A DNA stretch of 64,000 bases. It comes from Candidatus Omnitrophota bacterium (lineage in GTDB: Bacteria; Omnitrophota; Gorgyraeia; Zapsychrales; JANLHA01). The notes under the pieces were generated by a model. It was not told where the DNA came from and did not search any database. It saw only the letters and a list, made by a program, of their open reading frames with translations. Both the position numbers and the translations under genes were made by a program. The number at the start of each line of letters is the position of its first letter. The stretch's first letter is position 1. Of this stretch, positions 43,081 to 59,519 are shown in pieces. Where the stretch lies: the NCBI GenBank assembly GCA_963662715.1, contig OY759724.1, positions 2,266,662 through 2,330,661 of the forward strand, read 5' to 3'.

Positions 43081-44094
43081 TTGAAGATGGTATCGTACAA
43101 AGAATTGGGTTTCGTTAATACGCGGGAGATGTTTCAAAAGGCCATTGGCGGCCAGTACGCTGTCCCGGCGTATAATTTCAATAATATGGAACAGCTTCAG
43201 GCTATCATCACCGCTTGTCTGGAAACCCAGTCTCCGGTTATCCTGCAGGTTTCGAGCGGCGCCAGAAAATATGCCGACCAAACGTTGCTGCGATATTTGG
43301 GCCAGGGAGCCGTGGCCATGATGAAGGAGCATGCCAAACAGAAAGGGTTGAAGGAAATTCCTGTCTCCCTGCACCTTGATCACGGCGATACGTTTGAATT
43401 ATGTAAATCCTGTATCGAATCGGGATTCTCGTCCGTCATGATCGACGGTTCGCATCACCCTTACGATAAAAATGTTGAACTGACAAAACAGGTGGTGGAT
43501 TATGCTCATCAGTTTGATGTGACGGTGGAGGGAGAACTGGGTGTGCTGGCGGGCATCGAAGATGATGTCGTGGCTGAAAAATCGACATATACCCAGCCGG
43601 AGGAAGTTGAAGATTTTGTTAAAAAGACCGGGGTGGATTCCTTGGCTATTTCTATCGGCACGTCGCACGGGGCCAATAAATTTAAGCCGGAGCAATGTAC
43701 AAGAAACGCGGACGGCGTTCTGATTCCCCCTGAACTGCGTTTTGATATCCTCGAAGAGATCGAAAAACGTATCCCGGGCTTTTCCATCGTTCTTCACGGA
43801 TCTTCTTCAGTGCCGGTCGAGGCTGTGAAAATTATTAATGAAAACGGAGGGGCTTTGAAAGACTCCATCGGCATCCCGGAGGACCAGCTGCGCAAAGCCA
43901 CAAAATCGGCGGTTTGCAAGGTGAACATTGATTCCGACGGGAGACTTTGGATGACGGCGGCTGTTCGCAAGCATTTTAATGAGCATCCGGCTGATTTTGA
44001 CCCGAGGAAATATTTAGGGCCGGCTCGTCAGGCTTTAATCGAAATGTATAAACATAAGAATGAGAATGTTCTCGGATCGGCCGGAAAGGCTTGA
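43081..44094 (+). CDS. fba: Class II fructose-bisphosphate aldolase.
   Basis: 'GQYAVPAYNFNNMEQLQAII', 'SLHLDHGDT' and 'VEGELGVLAG'. Confidence 0.9.
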   Translation: MKMVSYKELGFVNTREMFQKAIGGQYAVPAYNFNNMEQLQAIITACLETQSPVILQVSSGARKYADQTLLRYLGQGAVAMMKEHAKQKGLKEIPVSLHLDHGDTFELCKSCIESGFSSVMIDGSHHPYDKNVELTKQVVDYAHQFDVTVEGELGVLAGIEDDVVAEKSTYTQPEEVEDFVKKTGVDSLAISIGTSHGANKFKPEQCTRNADGVLIPPELRFDILEEIEKRIPGFSIVLHGSSSVPVEAVKIINENGGALKDSIGIPEDQLRKATKSAVCKVNIDSDGRLWMTAAVRKHFNEHPADFDPRKYLGPARQALIEMYKHKNENVLGSAGKA

Positions 44095-48193: not shown

Positions 48194-48645
48194 CGTTATG
48201 AGATACGAGTTAATTGAGAGATGGTTGGGCGGCTTATGAAATCCATTTTCCCCTATTTTCTTCTGAATTTTCTAATCCCATACCAAAAATGAGAGGTATG
48301 GGATTTTTTATTATATATGATTTTGGGGGGGAGAAGAGGTCTTAGAGTGTTTTTTGCTGTTAAAGTTGCTAAAATGTATCTCTTTTTCTCTGCTGTGTTT
48401 TTCTTTTGTAGTGCAATCACAATGAAAAATTTGCGGCAAACCATTATGTCCGCTATAGCTTATATTGATTGAACCTGAGTAATGGTTTGTAAAACTTTGT
48501 GCGCTAAAAATACTTTTGTCCCACACAATGAGTTTTTTAGTGGTGAATTTTTGCGTGCGCTTTCAGTCAATAGAAGGGGTTGATATTGATTGACGTATAT
48601 GATATTATTTATAAGTCTAAAAATATATAATAAAGATTAGGTCTT

Positions 48646-51600
48646 TTGTATATAGATATCCTCAGTAATCCAAAAAGGAGTGGTCAAATGTTCCAAATAA
48701 TTCCTAAAACGGCTCAAAAAATGTTTTCACTAGTTCTTGTAGGGATTTTCTGTGTTTATCTTGTTTTCCCTCCAATCCTAAGCGCAGAGCTATTGAAATT
48801 GCCCGATCCGGGAACAACAATTTCTTTTAGCCCGGGATATCAGCCCGCTGTCATTGCCGGGGTGGTCGTGAATTCGGAAGATCCCCTTATGTTTGATTTC
48901 ATCATTGACAGGGGGGATTCCGGTCTTCTGGGCGCGGAATTGGAAGCAGAAACGAACAAGCTTGTAAAATATTTTCTTGCTGCTTTGACAATCCCTGAGG
49001 AAGAAGTCTGGGTGAACCTTTCTCCCTATGAAAGAGAGTTGATGATTCCGTTTGCTTTGGGTATTACGGAAATGGGAAAGGATATGTTGGCCCAGGATTA
49101 TTTGCTAAAACAGATGACCGCATCCTTGACACACCCGGAATCAGAAGTGGGGAAGAAATTCTGGGAAAAAGTTTATGAGAAAGCCTATAAACTTTACGGA
49201 ACCACGGAGATCCCGATTAATACCTTCAGTAAAGTCTGGATTGTCCCGAACAATGCTGTGGTTTTGGAAAAAGACGGAACGGCTTACGTGGTTGAGAATA
49301 CCTTGAAAGTCATGTTGGAAGAGGATTATTTGGCTATTGAAAAGAACTTGGATAATACAGAAATTGGAACAGACCAGCTTACTAAGGAACGTGTGGAATA
49401 TATAAATAATTTGTCGGCAGAGATTGTTAACGAAATTATTTTGCCCGAGTTATCCACAGAAGTGAATGAGGGCAAAAATTTTGGATTAGTCCGGCAGGTA
49501 TATAATTCCGTCATCCTTGCGACATGGTATAAAGACCGGCTAAAAGAAACACTGTTAGGCCGGATTTATGTAGATCGAAACAAGGTGGCGGGGGTTGATG
49601 TCTCAGACAAGACGATAAAAGAAAAGATTTATACCCAGTACATGGATGCGCTTCGTCAAGGTGTTTACAACTTTATTAAGGAAGATGTGGCTCCGGGAAC
49701 GAACGAAACCCTTCAGCGAAGATATTTTTCCGGAGGGATCGAGTTTGCTATTAATGTTAATAAGACCAGCAGTCCGATTCTTTTGGGGCAGAAAGCTCAA
49801 AAGAATTGGAAATCCATGAGTTCTGGAATTGCTACACGGGAAAAATCTTTTGATAATGTGGAGCGATATGTCAGAGCCAGGGTTGGCCTGAATACGACAT
49901 TGCCTATTTTAACCAATACTCAGCATGTCGCTAAAACTGTTTTGCCGAATTTGAGTTATTCAGCTGTTAATGCGGCTATAGATAACTCAACCAACATCCC
50001 GGATGACAGAAAATTAGAGTTAAAGAAAGAATTTATGGCGGCTTCTCAGGAATCCAAGAGAACCGGACGCCCGATTCAGTTAAGCCAGGTGCCGGAAATG
50101 GTGAAGGAAATTGAGTTGGGAGGAGCGAGCGGCCTGACCGAAAATTTGACCGGGGTGTTGCCTACGGTAAGTCAGGATGTCGCGGTCAGTCAAGTTGACT
50201 TTGCAAAGAATGTCGTCCCTAACCTTTCGGTTCCTATGGTCAATCAAATGATTGATCAGTCCAATCTTTCAGATAATGAAAGAGTTGTTTTAAAGGCCGA
50301 ATTTAAACAAGCCAGTGATATTGCTTTGGCGGAAAAGAAACCGATACGTCTCAGTTCTCTTCCTCAATTAGTTGGGGCTTTGGACAATATAGAAAGCGGT
50401 CTGGCTGTAGAAATAAGCCGGTCCCTGCCATCTCAGAGGCCCGATGTTGTTCAGACTCAGGTGAATGTGGCCAAACAGATCATTCCGAGCGTGAGTTCCC
50501 CGCTTATTACGCAAGCGATCGAAGGATCGAATATATCGCCGGAGAGAAAAGACACGTTAAGAAAAGAGGTGCAGGCCGAGATCAGCAAAGCCACCAGCGA
50601 GAACCGGCCGATCTCATTAGCGAACATTCCGAACCTGGCGATGGACTTAGAGAAGCCGGAGACGGGGATCGCCGCCGGCATCAGCCGTGTCCTGCCGACG
50701 TCCAGTCCGCTCGTGGAAACGGAACAGGTCTCGATGGCCAAACAGATGATCCCGAGCGTGACTCCGCAGGTTATCACGCAGGCGATCACAGGCTCGAACG
50801 TAGCACCGGAGAGGAAGGATACGTTAAGAAGAGAAGTACAGGCCGAGGTGAGCAGAGCGACCAGCGAGAACCGGCCGATCTCATTAGCGAATATTCCGAA
50901 TCTGGCGATGGATTTGGAGAAACCGGAAACAGGGATCGCTGCCGGCATCAGCCGTGTAGCGCCGAAAGCAGGCCCTGAGATGAAGGCCGGTGAAGTGAAT
51001 ATAGCGAAACAGATCCTGCCTAGCCTGACGGAAGCGGTTATCACGCAGGCGATCACAGGCTCGAACGTAGCACCGGAGAGGAAGGACACGTTAAGGAGAG
51101 AAGTCGCGGCCGAGGTGAGCAGAGCGACCAGCGAGAACCGGCCGGTCTCATTAGCGAATATTCCGAACCTGGCGATGGATTTAGAGAAACCGGAAACGGG
51201 AATCGCCGCTGGAATCAGCCGTGTTTTACCTGCCTCCAGCCCTCTCGTAGAAACGGAACAGGTCACGATGGCCAAGCAGATCATTCCGAGCGTGACTCCG
51301 CAGGTTATCACGCAGGCGATCGAAGGCTCGAACGTAGCGCCAGAGAGAAAAGACACGTTAAGGAGAGAAGTGCAGGCCGAGGTGAGCAGAGCGACCAGCG
51401 AGAACCGGCCGATCTCATTAGCGAACATCCCGAATCTGGCGATGGATTTGGAGAAACCGGAAACAGGGATCGCCGCCGGCATCAGCCAGGTAGCGCCGTC
51501 CGCAAGACCTGATACAGCAGCTGCTGAAGTGAATATAGCGAAACAGATCCTGCCGAGCGTGACTCCGCAGATTATCACACAGGCGATTGAAGGCTCGAAT

Positions 51601-54600
51601 GTCGCACCGGAGAGAAAGGATACGTTAAGAAGAGAAGTGGCGGCCGAGGTGAGCAAAGCAACCAGCGAGAACCGGCCGGTCTCATTAACGAACATCCCGA
51701 ATCTGGCGATGGATTTGGAGAAACCGGAAACAGGTATCGCCGCCGGTATCAGCCGTGTTTTACCCGCGTCCAGTCCGCTCGTAGAGACGGAACAGGTCAC
51801 GATGGCCAAACAGATTATTCCAAGTGTGACTCCGCAGGTTATCACGCAGGCGATCGAAGGCTCGAACGTAGCGCCAGAGAGAAAAGACACGTTAAGGAGA
51901 GAAGTACAGGCCGAGGTGAGCAGAGCAACCAGCGAGAACCGGCCAATCTCATTAGCGAACATTCCGAATTTGGCGATGGATTTGGAGAAACCGGAGACGG
52001 GGATAGCCGCCGGCATCAGCCGGGTGGCTCCGAAAGCAGGCCCTGAAATGAAGGCCGGTGAAGTGAATATAGCGAAACAGATCCTGCCCAGCCTGACGGA
52101 AGCGGTTATCACGCAGGCGATCACAGGCTCAAACGTAGCGCCGGAGAGAAAAGACACGTTAAGGAGAGAAGTAGCGGCCGAGGTGAGCAAAGCGACCAGC
52201 GAGAACCGGCCGATTTCATTAGCGAATATTCCGAATCTGACGATGGATTTGGAGAAACCGGAGACAGGTATCGCCGCCGGTATCAGCCGTGTTCTGCCGA
52301 CGTCCAGTCCGCTCGTAGAGACGGAACAGGTCACGATGGCCAAGAATATCATCCCGAGCGTGAGTCCGCAGGTTATCACACAGGCGATTGAAACCGCGAA
52401 TGTGACACCGCAAAGAAAAGACACGTTAAGGAGAGAAGTGGCGGCCGAGGTGAGCAAAGCAACCAGCGAGAACCGGCCGGTCTCATTAGCGAACATCCCG
52501 AATCTGACCATGGATTTGGAGAAACCGGAAACAGGGATCGCCGCCGGCATCAGCCGTGTTTTACCCGCGTCCAGTCCGCTCGTAGAGACGGAACAGGTAG
52601 CGATGGCCAAACAGATCATTCCGAGCGTGACTCCGCAGGTTATCACGCAGGCGATCGAAGGCTCGAACGTAGCGCCGGAGAGAAAGGACACGTTAAGGAG
52701 AGAAGTGGCGGCTGAGGTGAGCAGAGCGACCAGCGAAAACCGGCCGGTCTCATTAGCGAACATCCCGAACCTGGCGATGGATTTAGAGAAACCGGAGACG
52801 GGGATCGCCGCCGGAATCAGCCGGGTAGCGCCGAAAGCAGGCCCGGTGACAGCAGCCGGTGAAGTGAATATAGCAAAACAGATCCTGCCCAGCCTGACGG
52901 AAGCGGTAATTACTCAGGCGATCTCAGGATCGAACGTAGCGCCGCAGAGAAAAGACACGTTAAGGAGAGAAGTGGCGGCCGAGGTGAGCAAAGCGACCAG
53001 CGAGAACCGGCCGATCTCATTAGCGAATATTCCGAATTTGACGATGGATTTAGAGAAACCGGAAACGGGGATAGCCGCCGGCATCAGCCGTGTTATGCCG
53101 ACGTCCAGTCCGCTCGTAGAGACGGAACAGATCACGATGGCCAAACAGATCATTCCAAGCGTGACTCCGCAGGTTATCACGCAGGCGATCGAAGGCTCGA
53201 ACGTAGCACCACAGAGAAAGGACACGTTAAGGAGAGAAGTAGCGGCCGAGGTGAGCAGAGCAACCAGCGAGAACCGGCCGGTCTCATTAGCGAATATTCC
53301 GAATTTGGCGATGGATTTAGAGAAGCCGGAAACGGGAATAGCCGCCGGAATCAGCCGTGTTCTGCCAACGTCCAGTCCGCTCGTAGAGACGGAACAGGTC
53401 ACGATGGCCAAGCAGATCATTCCGAGCGTGACTCCGCAGGTTATCACGCAGGCGATCGAAGGCTCGAACGTAGCGCCGGAAAGAAAAGACACGTTAAGGA
53501 GAGAAGTAGCGGCCGAGGTGAGCAGAGCGACCAGCGAGAACCGGCCGGTCTCATTAGCGAACATCCCGAATCTGGCGATGGATCTGGAGAAACCGGAGAC
53601 GGGGATTGCCGCCGGGATCAGCCGGGTAGCGCCGTCCGCCAGACCTGACACGGCAGCCGGTGAAGTGAATATAGCAAAACAAATCCTGCCCAGCCTGACG
53701 GAAGCGGTAATCACGCAGGCGATTTCAGGCTCGAATGTTGCGCCGGAGAGAAAAGACACGTTAAGAAGAGAAGTCGCGGCCGAGGTGAGCAAAGCGACCA
53801 GCGAGAACCGGCCGGTCTCATTAGCGAATATTCCGAACCTGGCGATGGATTTAGAGAAACCGGAGACGGGGATAGCCGCCGGCATCAGCCGGGTTTTACC
53901 TGCGTCCAGTCCGCTCGTAGCGACGGAACAGATCACGATGGCCAAACAGATCATTCCGAGCGTGAGTCCGCAGGTTATCACGCAGGCGATCGAAGGCTCG
54001 AACATAGCGCCGGAGAGAAAGGACACGTTAAGGAGAGAAGTCGCGGCCGAGGTGAGCAAAGCGACCAGCGAGAACCGGCCGGTCTCATTAGCGAACATCC
54101 CGAATCTGGCGATGGATCTGGAGAAACCGGAGACGGGGATAGCCGCCGGCATCAGCCGTGTTATGCCGACGTCCAGTCCGCTCGTAGAGACGGAACAGAT
54201 CACGATGGCCAAACAGATCATTCCAAGCGTGACTCCGCAGGTTATCACGCAGGCGATCGAAGGCTCGAACGTAGCACCACAGAGAAAGGACACGTTAAGG
54301 AGAGAAGTAGCGGCCGAGGTGAGCAGAGCGACCAGCGAGAACCGGCCGATCTCATTAGCGAACGTCCCGAATCTGGCGATGGATTTAGAGAAACCGGAGA
54401 CGGGGATCGCCGCCGGAATCAGCCGGGTAGCTCCGAAAGCAGGCCCGGTGACAGCAGCCGGTGAAGTGAATATAGCAAAACAGATCCTGCCCAGCCTGAC
54501 GGAAGCGGTAATTACGCAGACGATTTCAGGCTCGAACGTAGCACCGGAGAGAAAAGACACGTTAAGGAGAGAAGTGGCGGCCGAGGTGAGCAAAGCGACC

Positions 54601-57600
54601 AGCGAGAACCGGCCGATCTCATTAGCGAACATCCCGAATCTGGTGATGGATTTGGAGAAACCGGAGACGGGGATCGCCGCCGGAATCAGCCGTGTTCTGC
54701 CGACGTCCAGTCCGCTCGTAGAGACGGAACAGGTCACGATGGCCAAGCAGATCATTCCGAGCGTGAGTCCGCAGATTATCACGCAGGCGATCTCGGGCTC
54801 GAATGTTGCACCACAGAGAAAAGACACGTTAAGGAGAGAAGTGGCGGCCGAGGTGAGCAGAGCGACCAGCGAGAACCGGCCGATCTCACTAGCGAACATC
54901 CCGAATCTGGCGATGGATCTGGAGAAACCGGAGACGGGGATAGCCGCCGGAATCAGCCGTGTTATGCCGACATCCAGTCCGCTCGTAGAGACGGAACAGG
55001 TAGCGATGGCCAAACAGATCATTCCGAGCGTGACTCCGCAGATTATCACTCAGGCGATCGAAGGCTCGAACGTAGCACCACAGAGAAAGGACACGTTAAG
55101 GAGAGAAGTACAGGCCGAGGTGAGCAGAGCAACCAGCGAGAACCGGCCGATTTCATTAGCGAACATCCCGAATCTGGCGATGGATTTAGAGAAACCGGAA
55201 ACGGGGATAGCTGCCGGGATCAGCCGGATAGCTCCGAAAGCAGGCCCTGAGACGAAAGCCGGGGAAGTGAATATAGCAAAACAAATCCTGCCCAGCCTGA
55301 CGGAAGCGGTTATCACGCAGGCGATTTCAGGCTCGAACGTAGCGCCGGAAAGAAAGGACACGTTAAGGAGAGAAGTACAGGCCGAGGTGAGCAGAGCGAC
55401 CAGCGAGAACCGGCCGATCTCATTAGCGAACATCCCGAATCTGGCGATGGATTTGGAGAAACCGGAAACAGGGATCGCCGCCGGAATCAGCCGTGTTATG
55501 CCGACGTCCAGTCCGCTCGTAGAGACGGAACAGGTCACGATGGCCAAACAGATCATTCCGAGCGTGACTCCGCAGGTTATCACGCAGGCGATCGAAGGCT
55601 CGAACGTAGCGCCGGAAAGAAAGGATACGTTAAGGAGAGAGGTGCAGGCCGAGGTGAGCAGAGCGACCAGCGAGAACCGGCCGGTCTCATTAGCGAACAT
55701 CCCGAATCTGGCGATGGATTTGGAGAAACCGGAGACGGGGATCGCCGCCGGCATCAGCCGGGTGGCGCCGTCCGCAAGACCAGATACAGCAGCTGCTGAA
55801 GTGAATATAGCAAAACAGATTCTGCCCAGCCTGACGGAAGCCGTGATTACGCAGGCGATCTCAGGCTCGAACGTTGCACCACAGAGAAAAGACACGTTAA
55901 GGAGAGAAGTACAGGCCGAGGTGAGTAAAGCGACCAGCGAGAACCGGCCGATCTCATTAGCGAACATCCCGAATCTGGCGATGGATTTAGAGAAACCGGA
56001 AACGGGGATCGCCGCCGGCATCAGCCGTGTTATGCCGACGTCCAGTCCGCTCGTAGAGACGGAACAGGTCACGATGGCCAAACAGATCATTCCAAGCGTG
56101 ACTCCGCAGATTATCACGCAGGCGATCGAAGGCTCGAACGTAGCGCCGGAAAGAAAAGACACGTTAAGGAGAGAAGTGGCGGCCGAGGTGAGCAAAGCGA
56201 CCAGCGAGAACCGGCCGGTCTCATTAGCGAACATCCCGAACCTGGCGATGGATCTGGAGAAACCAGAAACAGGGATCGCTGCCGGCATCAGCCGGGTAGC
56301 GCCGAAAGCAGGCCCTGAGATGAAAGCCGGTGAAGTGAATATAGCAAAACAGATCCTGCCCAGCCTGACGGAAGCGGTAATTACGCAGGCGATTTCAGGC
56401 TCGAATGTTGCGCCGGAGAGAAAAGACACGTTAAGAAGAGAAGTACAGGCCGAGGTGAGCAAAGCGACCAGCGAGAACCGGCCGATCTCATTAGCGAACA
56501 TCCCGAACCTGGCGATGGATTTAGAGAAACCGGAGACAGGGATCGCCGCCGGCATCAGCCGTGTTCTGCCGACGTCCAGTCCGCTCGTAGAGACGGAGCA
56601 GGTCACGGTGGCCAAACAGATCATTCCGAGCGTGAGTCCGCAGATTATCACGCAGGCGATCGAAGGCTCGAACGTAGCACCACAGAGAAAAGACACGTTA
56701 AGGAGAGAAGTGGCGGCCGAGGTGAGCAAAGCGACCAGCGAGAACCGGCCGATCTCATTAGCGAACGTCCCGAATCTGGCGATGGATTTAGAGAAACCGG
56801 AGACGGGGATCGCCGCCGGCATCAGCCGGGTCGTCCCTGCATTAACTTCTCAAGTTTCTTCAGAACGTATTTCAACTGCACAGGATATGGTTCCTAACCT
56901 CAGCCCGGCTATTATTGCAGACGCAATCAATACTGCCTCGTTGCCGGAAGCTGCTCGTCGGGAATTGCAGCAGGAATTTGAGCCTGTGAGCCGGAAAGCT
57001 TTATCAGAAGGCAAAACGGTTGAGATGAAGAATTTGCCTAAATTGGCAGCTGCTATTAATAATCCCACAACGAGGATAGCTGAAAATTTATTGAGAAATG
57101 TTCCTGCAACACCTTCGGTGGAAACTCAGGCGATGCAAATTGAATCAGTTAAAGCGATCCTGCCTCAACTTTCATCACCGATAGTCGCTCAGGCGATCAG
57201 TGAATCCAATCTTTCGGAACAAGAGCAGGTCGATTTGATCGGTAAATTTACGGTCGCAAGTAATTTGGCCGAGAAAACCGGACGTTTCGTTGACATTAAT
57301 GCGATCCCCGGGCTTGTTCAGGCCATTGAAAAACCGGATACCGGATTAGCTCTTCAATTAGCCAAAGCCGTTCCTACCAAATTGGAATCCGCCGTGAATA
57401 AGCAGAATTTAAAAGTGAATACGCTTTCTTCTTTAGCCAATCAGACGAGAGAGCTTGATGCTTTATTCAGAAAAGCGCCTGATATTGGAGCCAGGGAAAG
57501 AGAGCAGCTTATTCAGGAGATTCAGCAGCTCAAGAGAACAGGCGGTCTGTCGGATATTAAGAAATTCCGTTCACAAGCATCACCGGAACTTTTAGCCCGG

Positions 57601-57864
57601 GTAACCAAACCTCCGATCGGCCCAGAGCTGGAAAGAGTCGGTGGTATTAATTTGAACGCCAAGCTCTTTGATTTTCAAATTAATAAGGAGGGGAAGGGCA
57701 TTGATATCCCTATCGCTCTAAAAGATGGTCAGGAAATCAATTTTGGCGGTCTGGAGCCGTTTGTCATCGAAGTTGTTCCGGCGACGCCAGAATCTATTCC
57801 ATTCAATGAATCCAGTACTGATACAGCTGTGAAAGATGATCCTTTGAGAATTTCGAAATACTAG
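48646..57864 (+). CDS. Giant secreted/membrane-anchored repeat protein (3,072 aa by the track, 3,058 aa if the start is the ATG at 48688). It has an N-terminal signal anchor, a unique domain of about 400 aa, about 24 near-identical 89-aa tandem repeats flanked by degenerate copies, and a unique C-terminal domain of about 330 aa.
   Basis: A single 9.2-kb open frame. SD 'AAAGGAG' before the ATG at 48688 (MFQIIPKTAQKMFSLVLVGIFCVYLVFPPILSA). Repeat unit: 'VAPERKDTLRREVAAEVSKATSENRPISLANIPNLAMDLEKPETGIAAGISRVLPTSSPLVETEQVTMAKQIIPSVTPQVITQAIEGSN'. Confidence 0.85.
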   Translation: MYIDILSNPKRSGQMFQIIPKTAQKMFSLVLVGIFCVYLVFPPILSAELLKLPDPGTTISFSPGYQPAVIAGVVVNSEDPLMFDFIIDRGDSGLLGAELEAETNKLVKYFLAALTIPEEEVWVNLSPYERELMIPFALGITEMGKDMLAQDYLLKQMTASLTHPESEVGKKFWEKVYEKAYKLYGTTEIPINTFSKVWIVPNNAVVLEKDGTAYVVENTLKVMLEEDYLAIEKNLDNTEIGTDQLTKERVEYINNLSAEIVNEIILPELSTEVNEGKNFGLVRQVYNSVILATWYKDRLKETLLGRIYVDRNKVAGVDVSDKTIKEKIYTQYMDALRQGVYNFIKEDVAPGTNETLQRRYFSGGIEFAINVNKTSSPILLGQKAQKNWKSMSSGIATREKSFDNVERYVRARVGLNTTLPILTNTQHVAKTVLPNLSYSAVNAAIDNSTNIPDDRKLELKKEFMAASQESKRTGRPIQLSQVPEMVKEIELGGASGLTENLTGVLPTVSQDVAVSQVDFAKNVVPNLSVPMVNQMIDQSNLSDNERVVLKAEFKQASDIALAEKKPIRLSSLPQLVGALDNIESGLAVEISRSLPSQRPDVVQTQVNVAKQIIPSVSSPLITQAIEGSNISPERKDTLRKEVQAEISKATSENRPISLANIPNLAMDLEKPETGIAAGISRVLPTSSPLVETEQVSMAKQMIPSVTPQVITQAITGSNVAPERKDTLRREVQAEVSRATSENRPISLANIPNLAMDLEKPETGIAAGISRVAPKAGPEMKAGEVNIAKQILPSLTEAVITQAITGSNVAPERKDTLRREVAAEVSRATSENRPVSLANIPNLAMDLEKPETGIAAGISRVLPASSPLVETEQVTMAKQIIPSVTPQVITQAIEGSNVAPERKDTLRREVQAEVSRATSENRPISLANIPNLAMDLEKPETGIAAGISQVAPSARPDTAAAEVNIAKQILPSVTPQIITQAIEGSNVAPERKDTLRREVAAEVSKATSENRPVSLTNIPNLAMDLEKPETGIAAGISRVLPASSPLVETEQVTMAKQIIPSVTPQVITQAIEGSNVAPERKDTLRREVQAEVSRATSENRPISLANIPNLAMDLEKPETGIAAGISRVAPKAGPEMKAGEVNIAKQILPSLTEAVITQAITGSNVAPERKDTLRREVAAEVSKATSENRPISLANIPNLTMDLEKPETGIAAGISRVLPTSSPLVETEQVTMAKNIIPSVSPQVITQAIETANVTPQRKDTLRREVAAEVSKATSENRPVSLANIPNLTMDLEKPETGIAAGISRVLPASSPLVETEQVAMAKQIIPSVTPQVITQAIEGSNVAPERKDTLRREVAAEVSRATSENRPVSLANIPNLAMDLEKPETGIAAGISRVAPKAGPVTAAGEVNIAKQILPSLTEAVITQAISGSNVAPQRKDTLRREVAAEVSKATSENRPISLANIPNLTMDLEKPETGIAAGISRVMPTSSPLVETEQITMAKQIIPSVTPQVITQAIEGSNVAPQRKDTLRREVAAEVSRATSENRPVSLANIPNLAMDLEKPETGIAAGISRVLPTSSPLVETEQVTMAKQIIPSVTPQVITQAIEGSNVAPERKDTLRREVAAEVSRATSENRPVSLANIPNLAMDLEKPETGIAAGISRVAPSARPDTAAGEVNIAKQILPSLTEAVITQAISGSNVAPERKDTLRREVAAEVSKATSENRPVSLANIPNLAMDLEKPETGIAAGISRVLPASSPLVATEQITMAKQIIPSVSPQVITQAIEGSNIAPERKDTLRREVAAEVSKATSENRPVSLANIPNLAMDLEKPETGIAAGISRVMPTSSPLVETEQITMAKQIIPSVTPQVITQAIEGSNVAPQRKDTLRREVAAEVSRATSENRPISLANVPNLAMDLEKPETGIAAGISRVAPKAGPVTAAGEVNIAKQILPSLTEAVITQTISGSNVAPERKDTLRREVAAEVSKATSENRPISLANIPNLVMDLEKPETGIAAGISRVLPTSSPLVETEQVTMAKQIIPSVSPQIITQAISGSNVAPQRKDTLRREVAAEVSRATSENRPISLANIPNLAMDLEKPETGIAAGISRVMPTSSPLVETEQVAMAKQIIPSVTPQIITQAIEGSNVAPQRKDTLRREVQAEVSRATSENRPISLANIPNLAMDLEKPETGIAAGISRIAPKAGPETKAGEVNIAKQILPSLTEAVITQAISGSNVAPERKDTLRREVQAEVSRATSENRPISLANIPNLAMDLEKPETGIAAGISRVMPTSSPLVETEQVTMAKQIIPSVTPQVITQAIEGSNVAPERKDTLRREVQAEVSRATSENRPVSLANIPNLAMDLEKPETGIAAGISRVAPSARPDTAAAEVNIAKQILPSLTEAVITQAISGSNVAPQRKDTLRREVQAEVSKATSENRPISLANIPNLAMDLEKPETGIAAGISRVMPTSSPLVETEQVTMAKQIIPSVTPQIITQAIEGSNVAPERKDTLRREVAAEVSKATSENRPVSLANIPNLAMDLEKPETGIAAGISRVAPKAGPEMKAGEVNIAKQILPSLTEAVITQAISGSNVAPERKDTLRREVQAEVSKATSENRPISLANIPNLAMDLEKPETGIAAGISRVLPTSSPLVETEQVTVAKQIIPSVSPQIITQAIEGSNVAPQRKDTLRREVAAEVSKATSENRPISLANVPNLAMDLEKPETGIAAGISRVVPALTSQVSSERISTAQDMVPNLSPAIIADAINTASLPEAARRELQQEFEPVSRKALSEGKTVEMKNLPKLAAAINNPTTRIAENLLRNVPATPSVETQAMQIESVKAILPQLSSPIVAQAISESNLSEQEQVDLIGKFTVASNLAEKTGRFVDINAIPGLVQAIEKPDTGLALQLAKAVPTKLESAVNKQNLKVNTLSSLANQTRELDALFRKAPDIGAREREQLIQEIQQLKRTGGLSDIKKFRSQASPELLARVTKPPIGPELERVGGINLNAKLFDFQINKEGKGIDIPIALKDGQEINFGGLEPFVIEVVPATPESIPFNESSTDTAVKDDPLRISKY
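50410..56850 (+). repeat. Tandem array of about 24 copies of a 267-bp unit, roughly 90-97% identical at the nucleotide level, inside the giant gene. Three unit subtypes are interspersed.
   Basis: The 267-bp periodicity is visible directly: 'atcagccgtgt...' recurs at 50680, 50947, 51214 and onward. Confidence 0.9.
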
Positions 57865-57888
57865 TATTCATTGACACGGTATTGAAAA

Positions 57889-57920
57889 GGCGGGAATCAT
57901 GATTGATTCCCGCCTTTTTG
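57889..57920 (+). terminator. Rho-independent terminator of the giant gene.
   Basis: 'ggcgggaatca-tgat-tgattcccgcc' followed by 'tttttg'. Confidence 0.8.
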
Positions 57921-57929
57921 TTATCGCGA

Positions 57930-58480
57930 AAAAACCACGGCCATGAGGCCGTGGATGAAGCGTTTCCGAGGTCTTGGTTGCGTATGATACAATGGGTGCA
58001 TGAGATATTTGAAGCAAGGACACACAGTTTACTATGCCAGATACCATATTGTCATTTGTACAAGATATAGGCGAAAGATATTGCGATGGGGTTCGGCGGA
58101 GTATGTCAAAAGATGCGTTTTGGGAGTGATGAGACGGTATCCTGAGATCATCATTGAAAAAGTAAATACAGATTTAGATCATATGCATCTTTTGGCATCA
58201 ATTCCGCCGAAGATGGCTGTAAGTCATGCAGTAAATCTGATTAAGAGTAACACAGCAAAGCTGATGAGGCGGCGATATAAGTTTTTAGACAAGATGTATG
58301 TGAAAAAGGCAGGGATATGGTCAGCAGGGTATTTTGTGTCAACGGTTGGAGCCGACGAAGAATCGATAAAGCGATACATCGAATATCAAGGCCGGGAAGA
58401 CCGAGGACAAACGCAGATAGAATTTTAGCTGCGTTTGCACAGTCAAAATAGTTAAGAAACCACGGCCGTGAGGCCGTGGA
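57930..58480 (+). mobile_element. IS200/IS605-family insertion sequence carrying tnpA only, bracketed by identical 20-bp palindromes.
   Basis: The palindrome 'ccacggcc(a/g)tgaggccgtgg' occurs at 57935-57954 and again at 58460-58479 in the same orientation, flanking a Y1-transposase ORF. Confidence 0.75.
58000..58428 (+). CDS. tnpA: IS200-type Y1 (HuH) transposase TnpA.
   Basis: 'YYARYHIVICTRYRRKIL', 'DHMHLLASIPPK' (the HuH motif) and 'WSAGYFVSTVG' (catalytic Tyr), at 142 aa. Confidence 0.85.
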   Translation: MRYLKQGHTVYYARYHIVICTRYRRKILRWGSAEYVKRCVLGVMRRYPEIIIEKVNTDLDHMHLLASIPPKMAVSHAVNLIKSNTAKLMRRRYKFLDKMYVKKAGIWSAGYFVSTVGADEESIKRYIEYQGREDRGQTQIEF

Positions 58481-58748
58481 GTTTCATTGTGCCAATCATA
58501 AATGGCCAGAAAATGATTTAAAGCATTGATTTCCCCTTCAAATATCTATATAGTTTAGAAGTAAGTTTTGTTCCTGTTTGGGCCCGTTGCGAGGTTGAAC
58601 ATTCCCCTCTTTGCGCTATGAGTGTCCTCCTCTTGATTGAGGCGTGCCTGGTTGGGTTTTTAATAAATTCATATTTTATATGATCTCGTCGTTTTTTATC
58701 CTTTTCAATATCACGCAAAACTGTTGCGGGCTTATCATAAGAAAAGAC

Positions 58749-59519
58749 ATGACGTCTTGTTTGCATATCCCTACGGTGGCTTCCGGGATTGTCAGTGGCT
58801 TGATTCTTCTGTTCATCGTTGTTCTCCTGTTCATCATCATATTGTTTTGTTTTTGTGTTTTTTTTGACCAGGCTGTCTTCATCCGAAAAGGGACTTTTTT
58901 CTGCGCTCCTAATCATGGAAAAAGGGTTGCTTTAACTTTTGATGACGGCCCTTCTCCGCGCTGGACTCCCCAAATATTGGATGAGTTGTCCAAAGCAGGC
59001 ATCAAGGCGACTTTTTTTATGATCGGTTATCATGTGAGCAAATATCCCGAGATCGCCCGACGAGTCGCCGAAGAGGGCCATTTAATAGGGAACCACGGCT
59101 ATGCGCATAGTGTGCTGTTTTATTATAAGCCTGCCGAAATAGAAGAGGAAATCAAATACACGGAAGAAGTGATTAGACAGGTGACAGGTCAGGTGACACG
59201 ATACTTCCGCCCGCCGAAAGCGTGGCTGAGACATTCCATTAAGGATATTATCCATTCTATGGGCTACAAGGTCGTTCTGTGGTCCTTGAATTCTAAGGAT
59301 TGGGTCACGTTTAACCACCGGTCTATCGTCCGTTTTATCGTAAGACGAATTAAGAATGGAGATGTTTTGTTGTTTCATGACAGCGGGAGCATTTTCGGGA
59401 TAGAAGGAGGAGACCGTACTCAGACCGTGGCTACAATACCATTATTGGTTCAAAAGTTAAAAGAAAAGGGGTATCAATTTGTTACCATTGACGAACTATT
59501 TTCTGATGAAGAATGCTAG
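58749..59519 (+). CDS. Polysaccharide deacetylase (NodB/CE4 domain) with an N-terminal TM anchor.
   Basis: 'RVALTFDDGPSPRWTPQILDEL...ATFFMIGYHV...EGHLIGNHGYAHS', the CE4 motifs TFDDG and H-x4-H. Start placed at the ATG at 58749 (TM segment). Confidence 0.85.
   Translation: MTSCLHIPTVASGIVSGLILLFIVVLLFIIILFCFCVFFDQAVFIRKGTFFCAPNHGKRVALTFDDGPSPRWTPQILDELSKAGIKATFFMIGYHVSKYPEIARRVAEEGHLIGNHGYAHSVLFYYKPAEIEEEIKYTEEVIRQVTGQVTRYFRPPKAWLRHSIKDIIHSMGYKVVLWSLNSKDWVTFNHRSIVRFIVRRIKNGDVLLFHDSGSIFGIEGGDRTQTVATIPLLVQKLKEKGYQFVTIDELFSDEEC

Follow-up and report, generated by a model that had tools for sequence, protein, structure and literature searches.

A 28-unit tandem-repeat protein of Omnitrophota, its lineage-specific core array and the family that shares its end modules

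The stretch analysed, called the window below, is 64,000 nucleotides (nt) of contig OY759724.1 (positions 2,266,662 to 2,330,661, forward strand; assembly GCA_963662715.1) from a Candidatus Omnitrophota bacterium. It carries a gene (48646..57864, plus strand) for a very long protein built of tandem units of about 89 amino acids (aa). The core of the array evolves in concert by unequal exchange among its units, and was expanded or homogenised long after this lineage split from that of a full-length ortholog. The units are under purifying selection at the protein level. The protein is the repeat-only member of a large, undescribed family, apparently restricted to Omnitrophota, with two conserved end modules, here termed the N-module and the C-module. 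An even chance is given to its description as an exported, elongated modular protein, a spacer or fibre with copy number determining its length. The array by itself is nothing very unusual; of more value is the end-module family, which is without structural or family-level relatives.

The gene is a single open reading frame (ORF) of 3,072 aa counted from TTG, and the uninterrupted 9.2-kb frame described in the initial annotation stands. The real start is probably the in-frame ATG at 48688-48690 rather than the TTG. As read directly from the sequence, it lies 7 nt past a Shine-Dalgarno sequence AAGGAG (48675-48680; whole site 48675..48690, plus strand), giving a protein of 3,058 aa, and orthologs P0001 and P0121 open with the same MFQI/MFPI. 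The stop codon occupies 57862-57864 (plus strand). An exact-sequence query with the protein matched no record among public assemblies.

One array is reported by Tandem Repeats Finder, at 50468-56828, with 23.8 copies and 82% matches. It is far beyond chance, because the period is 267, the score 8025 and the frame intact over 6.4 kb. In the protein register the core array consists of 24 units at 50425..56832 (plus strand), each exactly 89 aa or 267 bp, in three subtypes. Two degenerate units of 89/90 aa precede it (u-2 and u-1, 49891..50424, plus strand) and two degenerate units follow it (d+1 and d+2, 56833..57366, plus strand); all four were placed by unit alignment and have one-to-one orthologs in P0121. 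The total is 28 units, with copy number as assembled, and agrees with the earlier count of about 24 tandem units with degenerate copies on both sides. The core subtypes follow one another in the order AABACABAABAACAABAABACABA, exactly the interleaved order first proposed. The initial annotation overstated the likeness of the units in calling them near-identical, with a few percent nucleotide difference. Pairwise nucleotide identity of core units averages 84% (range 73-95.5%; type A against types B/C, 78-79%), no two of the 24 are identical, and the most alike pair differs at 12 of 267 nt. By comparison of 60-aa fragments, internal repeats make up 92% of the middle of the protein, with a median identity of 83%. 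Three ORFs of 768, 711 and 590 aa lie antisense inside the array (minus strand, 50457-56822); the simplest explanation is that a 267-bp unit free of stop codons in that reverse frame has been repeated.

The possibility that the array or its copy number was mis-assembled from a shorter or different repeat is very improbable. For the relative P0001, two short-read (SPAdes-style) assemblies both break off after 612 aa of the gene, at the very point where the core begins, and exact repeats in the window array reach 197 nt; on these grounds the caution attached earlier to copy number under short-read assembly keeps some force. Its premise of near-identity does not hold. The assembly worry is weaker than first stated, because the units are diverged, 98% of the 100-mers of the array are unique and an independent assembly holds an ortholog array of similar size. 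That ortholog, P0121, lies on a 584-kb contig whose name format resembles that of a long-read assembler, and its core consists of 22 units equal in length to those of the window. An artefact would also sit poorly with 24 units that are all exactly 267 nt, all in frame and all different.

Differences between the units are mostly synonymous. Over all core units the synonymous divergence (dS) is 0.51 and the nonsynonymous divergence (dN) 0.107 (dN/dS 0.21); within type A the values are 0.30 and 0.04 (dN/dS 0.13), and in the constant two-thirds of the unit 0.39 and 0.03. The units are therefore under purifying selection at the protein level, and neither mis-assembly nor a decaying repeat would give such a pattern. 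A decaying or selfishly expanding repeat with no function at the protein level is hardly credible. The narrow spread of the repeat type would suit it: the 89-aa unit is confined to the window protein, P0121, P0122, P0001 and, weakly, P0003, and DNA-level and protein-level scans of Joint Genome Institute (JGI) metagenome contigs did not find the window-type unit. Against it stand the dN/dS among units, the frame intact over 9.2 kb, and the same architecture kept in P0121 although synonymous sites are saturated.

P0121 and the C-module family came to light when the last 432 aa of the window protein served as query in an exhaustive HMMER search. P0121 is a full-length ortholog of 2,888 aa and 26 units, against 28 in the window protein, and matches from end to end. 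Its locus (L083) is syntenic, with HMGL-like, KDPG aldolase, iPGM, repeat, PMT-like and GGDEF genes; the DNA flanking the gene is about 67-75% identical between the two loci. The flanks of the core are 78-89% identical in protein between window and P0121, with dN of 0.08-0.18 and saturated synonymous sites (proportion of synonymous differences, pS, 0.67-0.89). The N-module is 89% identical (dN 0.08, pS 0.86). The edge units u-2, u-1 and d+2, compared one to one, are 78-81% identical (78% for d+2; dN 0.12-0.18, pS 0.67-0.85), and the C-terminal region (57367-57861) is 81% identical (dN 0.13, pS 0.75). The transition units c1/q1 and d+1 are 45% and 54% identical (dN 0.47 and 0.32, likewise saturated, pS 0.85 and 0.75). 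Core units are about 85-86% identical within one array (dN 0.08-0.11, dS about 0.5), whereas between the window and P0121 arrays they are 41% identical (33-49%; dN 0.50, pS 0.68), so that core protein divergence between the two lineages runs 3-6 times faster than that of the flanks. Because identity is high within each array, low between the arrays and high again in the flanks, the expansion or homogenisation of each core took place long after the two lineages had separated.

Exchange among units is shown directly. In the window array all four gametes are present at 66% of informative site pairs, and at 83% within type A. Mosaic units are visible; unit 5 joins a C-type head to an A-type middle. 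P0121 carries recent four-unit block duplications of up to 99.6% nucleotide identity. The ongoing unequal recombination or concerted evolution suspected earlier from the unit order is thus borne out by the four-gamete pairs and by a P0121 core 86% alike internally but only 41% alike to that of the window. The G+C content of third codon positions (GC3) is 0.67-0.69 in both independently homogenised cores (window 50692-56832; P0121 in L083), against 0.39-0.54 in the flanks of the same genes; neighbouring genes have 0.45-0.57. High core GC3 would fit GC-biased gene conversion where exchange is frequent. A strong A>T skew (+0.3) marks the window core as well.

An AlphaFold2 (AF2) model of two units predicts five helices per unit at a predicted local distance difference test (pLDDT) score of about 78, with low confidence only at the unit junctions. 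The predicted unit is a small helical bundle, joined to the next by a low-confidence Pro-rich linker. The repeat matches no nameable domain, as had been supposed: the whole protein, searched against Pfam and NCBIfam, gave no family with a single passing stretch. A profile search of Protein Data Bank (PDB) sequences with the repeat returned low-complexity or chance matches only, and neither two core units nor the C-terminal 168 aa matched anything in word-indexed homology searches. Several apparent library matches were rejected. The PrkA C-terminal domain (PF06798) reaches a whole-protein E-value of 6e-54 by summing about 26 weak repeat matches, of which none passes individually; two units alone score 22.0 bits, under the Pfam gathering score of 25 bits. 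The VapB antitoxin model (NF050181; E=3e-20, 72.5 bits) is likewise summed over repeats, with no passing stretch and an architecture incompatible with a single domain in a protein of about 70 aa. CUE and Mx_ML are also sums of many sub-threshold repeat matches, with no stretch that passes.

At the N-terminus lies a predicted Sec-type signal peptide of 33 aa (48688..48786, plus strand), reading MFQIIPKTAQK, a hydrophobic core and PPILSA/E, with the slash at the putative cleavage site. The sole hydrophobic segment of the 3,058-aa protein is aa 8-38 (19-aa window, Kyte-Doolittle value > 1.6). Among complete homolog N-termini, 70 of 71 have a positively charged n-region. Those inspected continue with a hydrophobic core, a Pro break and an AxA-like site (YAQ, FAQ), followed a few residues on by a conserved LPxPG; the window protein reads PPILSA/ELLKLPDPG at the junction, with LPxPG within about 10 residues of the signal. 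These features are those of a Sec signal probably open to cleavage by signal peptidase I, rather than of the signal-anchor named in the initial annotation.

The N-module (48787..49737, plus strand) is a predicted alpha/beta module of about 320 aa, marked by LPxPG, WVNLSPYE and RRYFSGG. Its AF2 model is mixed alpha/beta and of moderate confidence (pLDDT 76.8; predicted TM score, pTM, 0.75). Thirty-six columns are invariant among 86 sequences, and all are present in the window protein, as are the motifs WVNLSPYE, TEMG..L.QDY.LKQ, EVNEGKNF..RQ and RKYFSGG. No relative of the N-module was found in Pfam, in NCBIfam or, by profile search, among PDB sequences, and Foldseek gave no match at E <= 0.001 (TM <= 0.13). 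A linker (49738..49890, plus strand), with pLDDT below 50 from residue 349 on, leads to the first unit. The C-terminal side begins with a pre-module region of about 90 aa (57367..57639, plus strand) that is kept in the closest relatives; HMMER matches to P0123-P0125 reach query positions 194-340. The C-module, with a short polar tail, follows at 57640..57861 (plus strand), located by its motif (GGINLN...KEGKGIDIPIALKDGQEINFGGLEPFVIEVVPATPESIPF) and by multiple alignment. It is about 55 aa long and reads GGINLN...KEGKGIDIP...INFGGLEPFVIEVVPATP, and its GGINLN begins 74 residues before the C-terminus. The consensus is GGI[DN]xN...G.G...P......I.GL.P.I..I.P, also written GGI[DN]LN...GLxPxxI..xP. 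In alignment with 26 others, G23, I24, P45, G58, P61 and P68 are invariant. The C-module has no match among PDB sequences by profile search; 27 C-modules against NCBIfam at E<=1 gave one chance match, to a riboflavin kinase model; and the C-terminal 164 aa gave nothing relevant against Pfam. Both terminal domains had been called unique; they are conserved modules common to many other proteins.

More than 1253 homologs of the N-module were found, nearly all labelled Omnitrophota/Omnitrophica and nearly all "hypothetical, partial"; E-values are 1e-216 to 1e-109 among the 120 homologs listed. A few matches are labelled as Heimdallarchaeota, Auribacterota or Planctomycetales metagenome-assembled genomes (MAGs). 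Reference MAGs hold more than 579 N-module loci, with at least 5 paralogs in single MAGs, some in tandem; the 64-kb window holds one family copy. About 60 proteins, 100-4,763 aa in length, bear the C-module at 54-101 aa from the C-terminus. Of the 22 among them that are longer than 500 aa and begin with Met, about 19 also contain the N-module (residues ~40-355). The 69 complete family genes from reference genomes encode 404-3,361 aa, at least 47 of them with the C-module, and nine further family genes exceed 3,700 aa. Middles are highly variable, more than half being without a Pfam domain. Passengers in members with both end modules include PPDK-like domains, two methyltransferases, a receiver, HEAT/ARM repeats, and GNAT with DUF7790. 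Two members without the C-module carry an enolase, or a Glu/Ala dehydrogenase, with permuted domain order. In only 6 of 87 members do internal repeats occupy 30% or more of the middle (60-aa fragments), all of them far more diverged than the window array; short-read MAGs will under-represent such arrays. No mention of the N-module/C-module pair was found in the accessible parts of the literature on Omnitrophota giant proteins, and no papers on the motifs of the two modules were found in the searchable literature.

The two permuted members lie at L049:9884-14599 and L027:4413-9056, each an N-module protein with in-frame permuted housekeeping-enzyme domains. In one, Enolase_C (946-1260) stands ahead of Enolase_N (1279-1373). 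In the other, a Glu-dehydrogenase module is followed by AlaDh_PNT_C (1011-1151) and then by AlaDh_PNT_N (1176-1294). Family genes also occur in tandem, with three N-module ORFs within about 20 kb in L077 and in L048 and two in L038 and in L049, which points to local duplication not just of internal units but of entire genes. The next-closest protein by C-terminal region is P0125 (1,608 aa, N-terminally truncated; 34% identity over about 220 aa). It too has a long stalk of helical-looking repeats, but the unit is longer and not the same, so that repeat stalks turn up in this subfamily with more than one type of unit.

As an exported, elongated protein the window gene product would work as follows. 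The Sec signal peptide would carry it across the cytoplasmic membrane and would probably be cleaved. The mature protein would consist of the N-module of about 320 aa, a stalk of 28 five-helix domains with short Pro-rich linkers, and the small C-module. The stalk would serve as a spacer or fibre holding the end modules a set distance apart, the distance being fixed by the number of units; a length of about 0.1 micrometre if fully extended is a rough guess from 3-4.5 nm per helical-bundle domain, not from coordinates. The array itself changes by unequal exchange and gene conversion among units, and selection keeps the protein sequence of the unit; both are shown by the comparisons above. The protein would represent the repeat-only extreme of a family of signal peptide, N-module, variable passenger and C-module. 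The end modules probably contact the cell envelope, an export or sorting pathway, or a partner cell. An extended fibre with length set by copy number is plausible, because there is a Sec-type signal, a single hydrophobic segment, predicted helical bundles with Pro-rich linkers, and a unit count of 28 against 26. An adhesin role, raised earlier, is possible but unsupported; the family is not simply one of adhesins, because other members carry enzyme domains in place of the stalk.

Several points weigh against an exported spacer or fibre. No experiment or homology links any part of the protein to a function or to a location beyond the cytoplasmic membrane, and signal cleavage, extended shape and physical length are all inferences. 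The two-unit AF2 model has a pTM of only 0.46, and unit-to-unit orientation is not predicted. No conserved neighbouring gene that would point to a dedicated partner in secretion or anchoring was found around 98 family genes; the top neighbour cluster occurs at 18 of 80 loci and, from one example sequence, resembles generic multidomain sensor proteins. Passengers in relatives that are normally cytoplasmic (receiver, methyltransferases, GNAT, PPDK-like) fit an exported structural role poorly, as do the enolase and dehydrogenase passengers of members without the C-module.

These passengers (enolase, Glu/Ala dehydrogenase, PPDK-like, methyltransferase, GNAT, NUDIX, PP2C, receiver) would suit a scaffold tethered to the cytoplasmic face of the membrane, in which an uncleaved N-terminal anchor keeps enzymes or spacers in the cell interior, a scaled-down counterpart of the "multi-enzyme" giants of Omnitrophota. 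Multi-enzyme membrane-anchored giant proteins occur in the same phylum, according to the available text of a preprint (10.64898/2026.06.07.730766). Such a scaffold is nevertheless improbable. The positive n-regions, together with the Pro break and AxA-like site in those inspected, correspond to the N-in/C-out topology of exported proteins, and the window protein has no further hydrophobic segments.

A released effector or cargo of a dedicated secretion or sorting pathway, in place of a fixed fibre, is rather unlikely. The C-module, perhaps with the N-module, would then be a recognition signal, like the C-terminal sorting domains of other phyla, and the protein would end up in the medium or in a cell that is host or prey. 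The place of the C-module, always 54-101 aa from the C-terminus whatever the passenger or length, the high diversity of passengers, and the host-dependent or predatory habit reported for Omnitrophota in the part available of PMC10066038 would all agree with delivery. Opposed to it are the lack of any match of the C-module to a curated NCBIfam family, a library expected to hold models of known sorting domains, and the absence of a conserved neighbouring gene among those surveyed; a 28-unit inert helical stalk would also make an odd effector.

A broader proposal, tentative and on balance doubtful, is that the N- and C-modules mark a previously undescribed, phylum-specific export, display or sorting system. 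It would take passengers of any kind out of the cytoplasm of these ultra-small, host-dependent bacteria, and the N-module would be a new fold. If so, the window gene would be the spacer-only extreme of that system, and copy number would tune its reach. Passengers would range from inert helical stalks to methyltransferases, receiver and PPDK-like domains, and N-module members without the C-module would also carry circularly permuted enolase and dehydrogenase domains.

Two known types of surface protein offer a comparison with the exported spacer or fibre. Ebh of Staphylococcus aureus is a giant stalk of FIVAR-GA modules, with tens of small helical domains thought to form an extended rod. The window protein resembles it as a very long protein, predicted to be exported, of tens of tandem small all-helical domains and thousands of residues; it differs in that its repeats are not matched by the FIVAR or GA models of Pfam. 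The streptococcal alpha C and Rib proteins have beta-rich (Rib domain) repeats that are often identical at the DNA level and evolve in concert. Shared features are an in-frame array of long units homogenised within the gene, a copy number that varies between lineages, and edge units more diverged than the core. The window units differ in being predicted helical, 73-95% identical and substantially diverged at synonymous sites. The window protein belongs to neither family, because the defining domains were searched for and are absent.

Within the same phylum, giant proteins of Archaeovorin and Dockerin types (West-Roberts et al. 2023, bioRxiv 10.1101/2023.11.21.568195) and a "tandem-repeat scaffold" class (Nielsen & Lui 2026, bioRxiv 10.64898/2026.06.07.730766) have been described. 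As far as the available portions of these preprints go, the described giants are no shorter than 10,000 aa (10,000-30,000 aa or more for the Archaeovorin and Dockerin types), are rich in transmembrane helices and as a rule contain SecA-DEAD, C39 or dockerin/TSP3 domains. Like them, the window protein is long, mostly unannotated and predicted to be extracytoplasmic. It shares with the tandem-repeat scaffolds, as presented there, a repeat architecture with copies that have accumulated synonymous changes, and its relatives carry enzyme passengers similar to those of the "multi-enzyme" giants. It differs from the giants so described in having 3,058 aa and one hydrophobic segment. A Pfam scan of the whole protein at E<=1 found no SecA-DEAD, C39 peptidase, dockerin or TSP3 domain.

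A repeats-in-toxin (RTX) or type I secreted giant adhesin was considered and rejected. Such adhesins lack a Sec signal and have Ig-like beta repeats and GGxGxD nonapeptide repeats at the C-terminus. The protein has a Sec-type signal, its repeats are predicted helical, there is no match to HemolysinCabind or another RTX model, and GGINLN occurs once, not as a nonapeptide array. The type IX secretion system C-terminal domain (T9SS CTD) and PEP-CTERM offer a functional analogy only: an N-terminal Sec signal with a small conserved domain at the extreme C-terminus, across unrelated passengers. The window family differs in its second conserved module, the N-terminal one of about 320 aa, which has no counterpart there, and in that no partner genes were found beside it. 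No curated NCBIfam or Pfam match to known C-terminal sorting domains (T9SS CTD, PEP-CTERM, LPXTG, others) was found.

The gene looks like a stand-alone transcription unit, because it has its own promoter-like site and a strong terminator. The promoter-like site, a consensus match only, is TTGATA-17-TATTAT with an upstream TG (48580..48608, plus strand; consensus scan), in an AT-rich intergenic region of about 490 bp. The predicted intrinsic terminator (57884..57922, plus strand) begins 20 nt past the stop codon and has a 16-bp perfect stem, a 4-nt loop and a T-run; its RNA fold has -26.6 kcal/mol (z = -7.96), and 0 of 200 shuffles are equally stable. Farther downstream, within 57935-58479, lies an IS200-type Y1 transposase gene (58000-58428; PF01797, E=1.6e-28). 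A 20-nt palindrome stands on either side of it, CCACGGCCATGAGGCCGTGG (57935-57954) on one and CCACGGCCGTGAGGCCGTGG (58460-58479) on the other; the two are almost the same in sequence. The P0121 locus (L083) lacks both this element and the polysaccharide deacetylase ORF found in the window at 58644-59519, and its PMT-like gene lies 411 nt past the giant gene. Fructose-bisphosphate aldolase is called as two ORFs (130 + 200 aa) at 337-1345 in L083, against one ORF of 337 aa at 43081-44094 in the window; the split could be an assembly indel error or a real pseudogene.

Omnitrophota are abundant, uncultured and ultra-small bacteria, believed to dwell on other cells or to prey on them. The numerous very large proteins without annotation in this phylum remain a puzzle, of which the window gene and its ortholog give a clean, complete example of one class. 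The example shows a stalk of helical domains (as predicted) homogenised independently in each lineage while the protein sequence stayed under selection. The end-module pair, without a family model or structural relative and common to more than 1,000 proteins with unrelated middles, is a defined experimental handle. It could help to reveal how Omnitrophota export and deploy large proteins.

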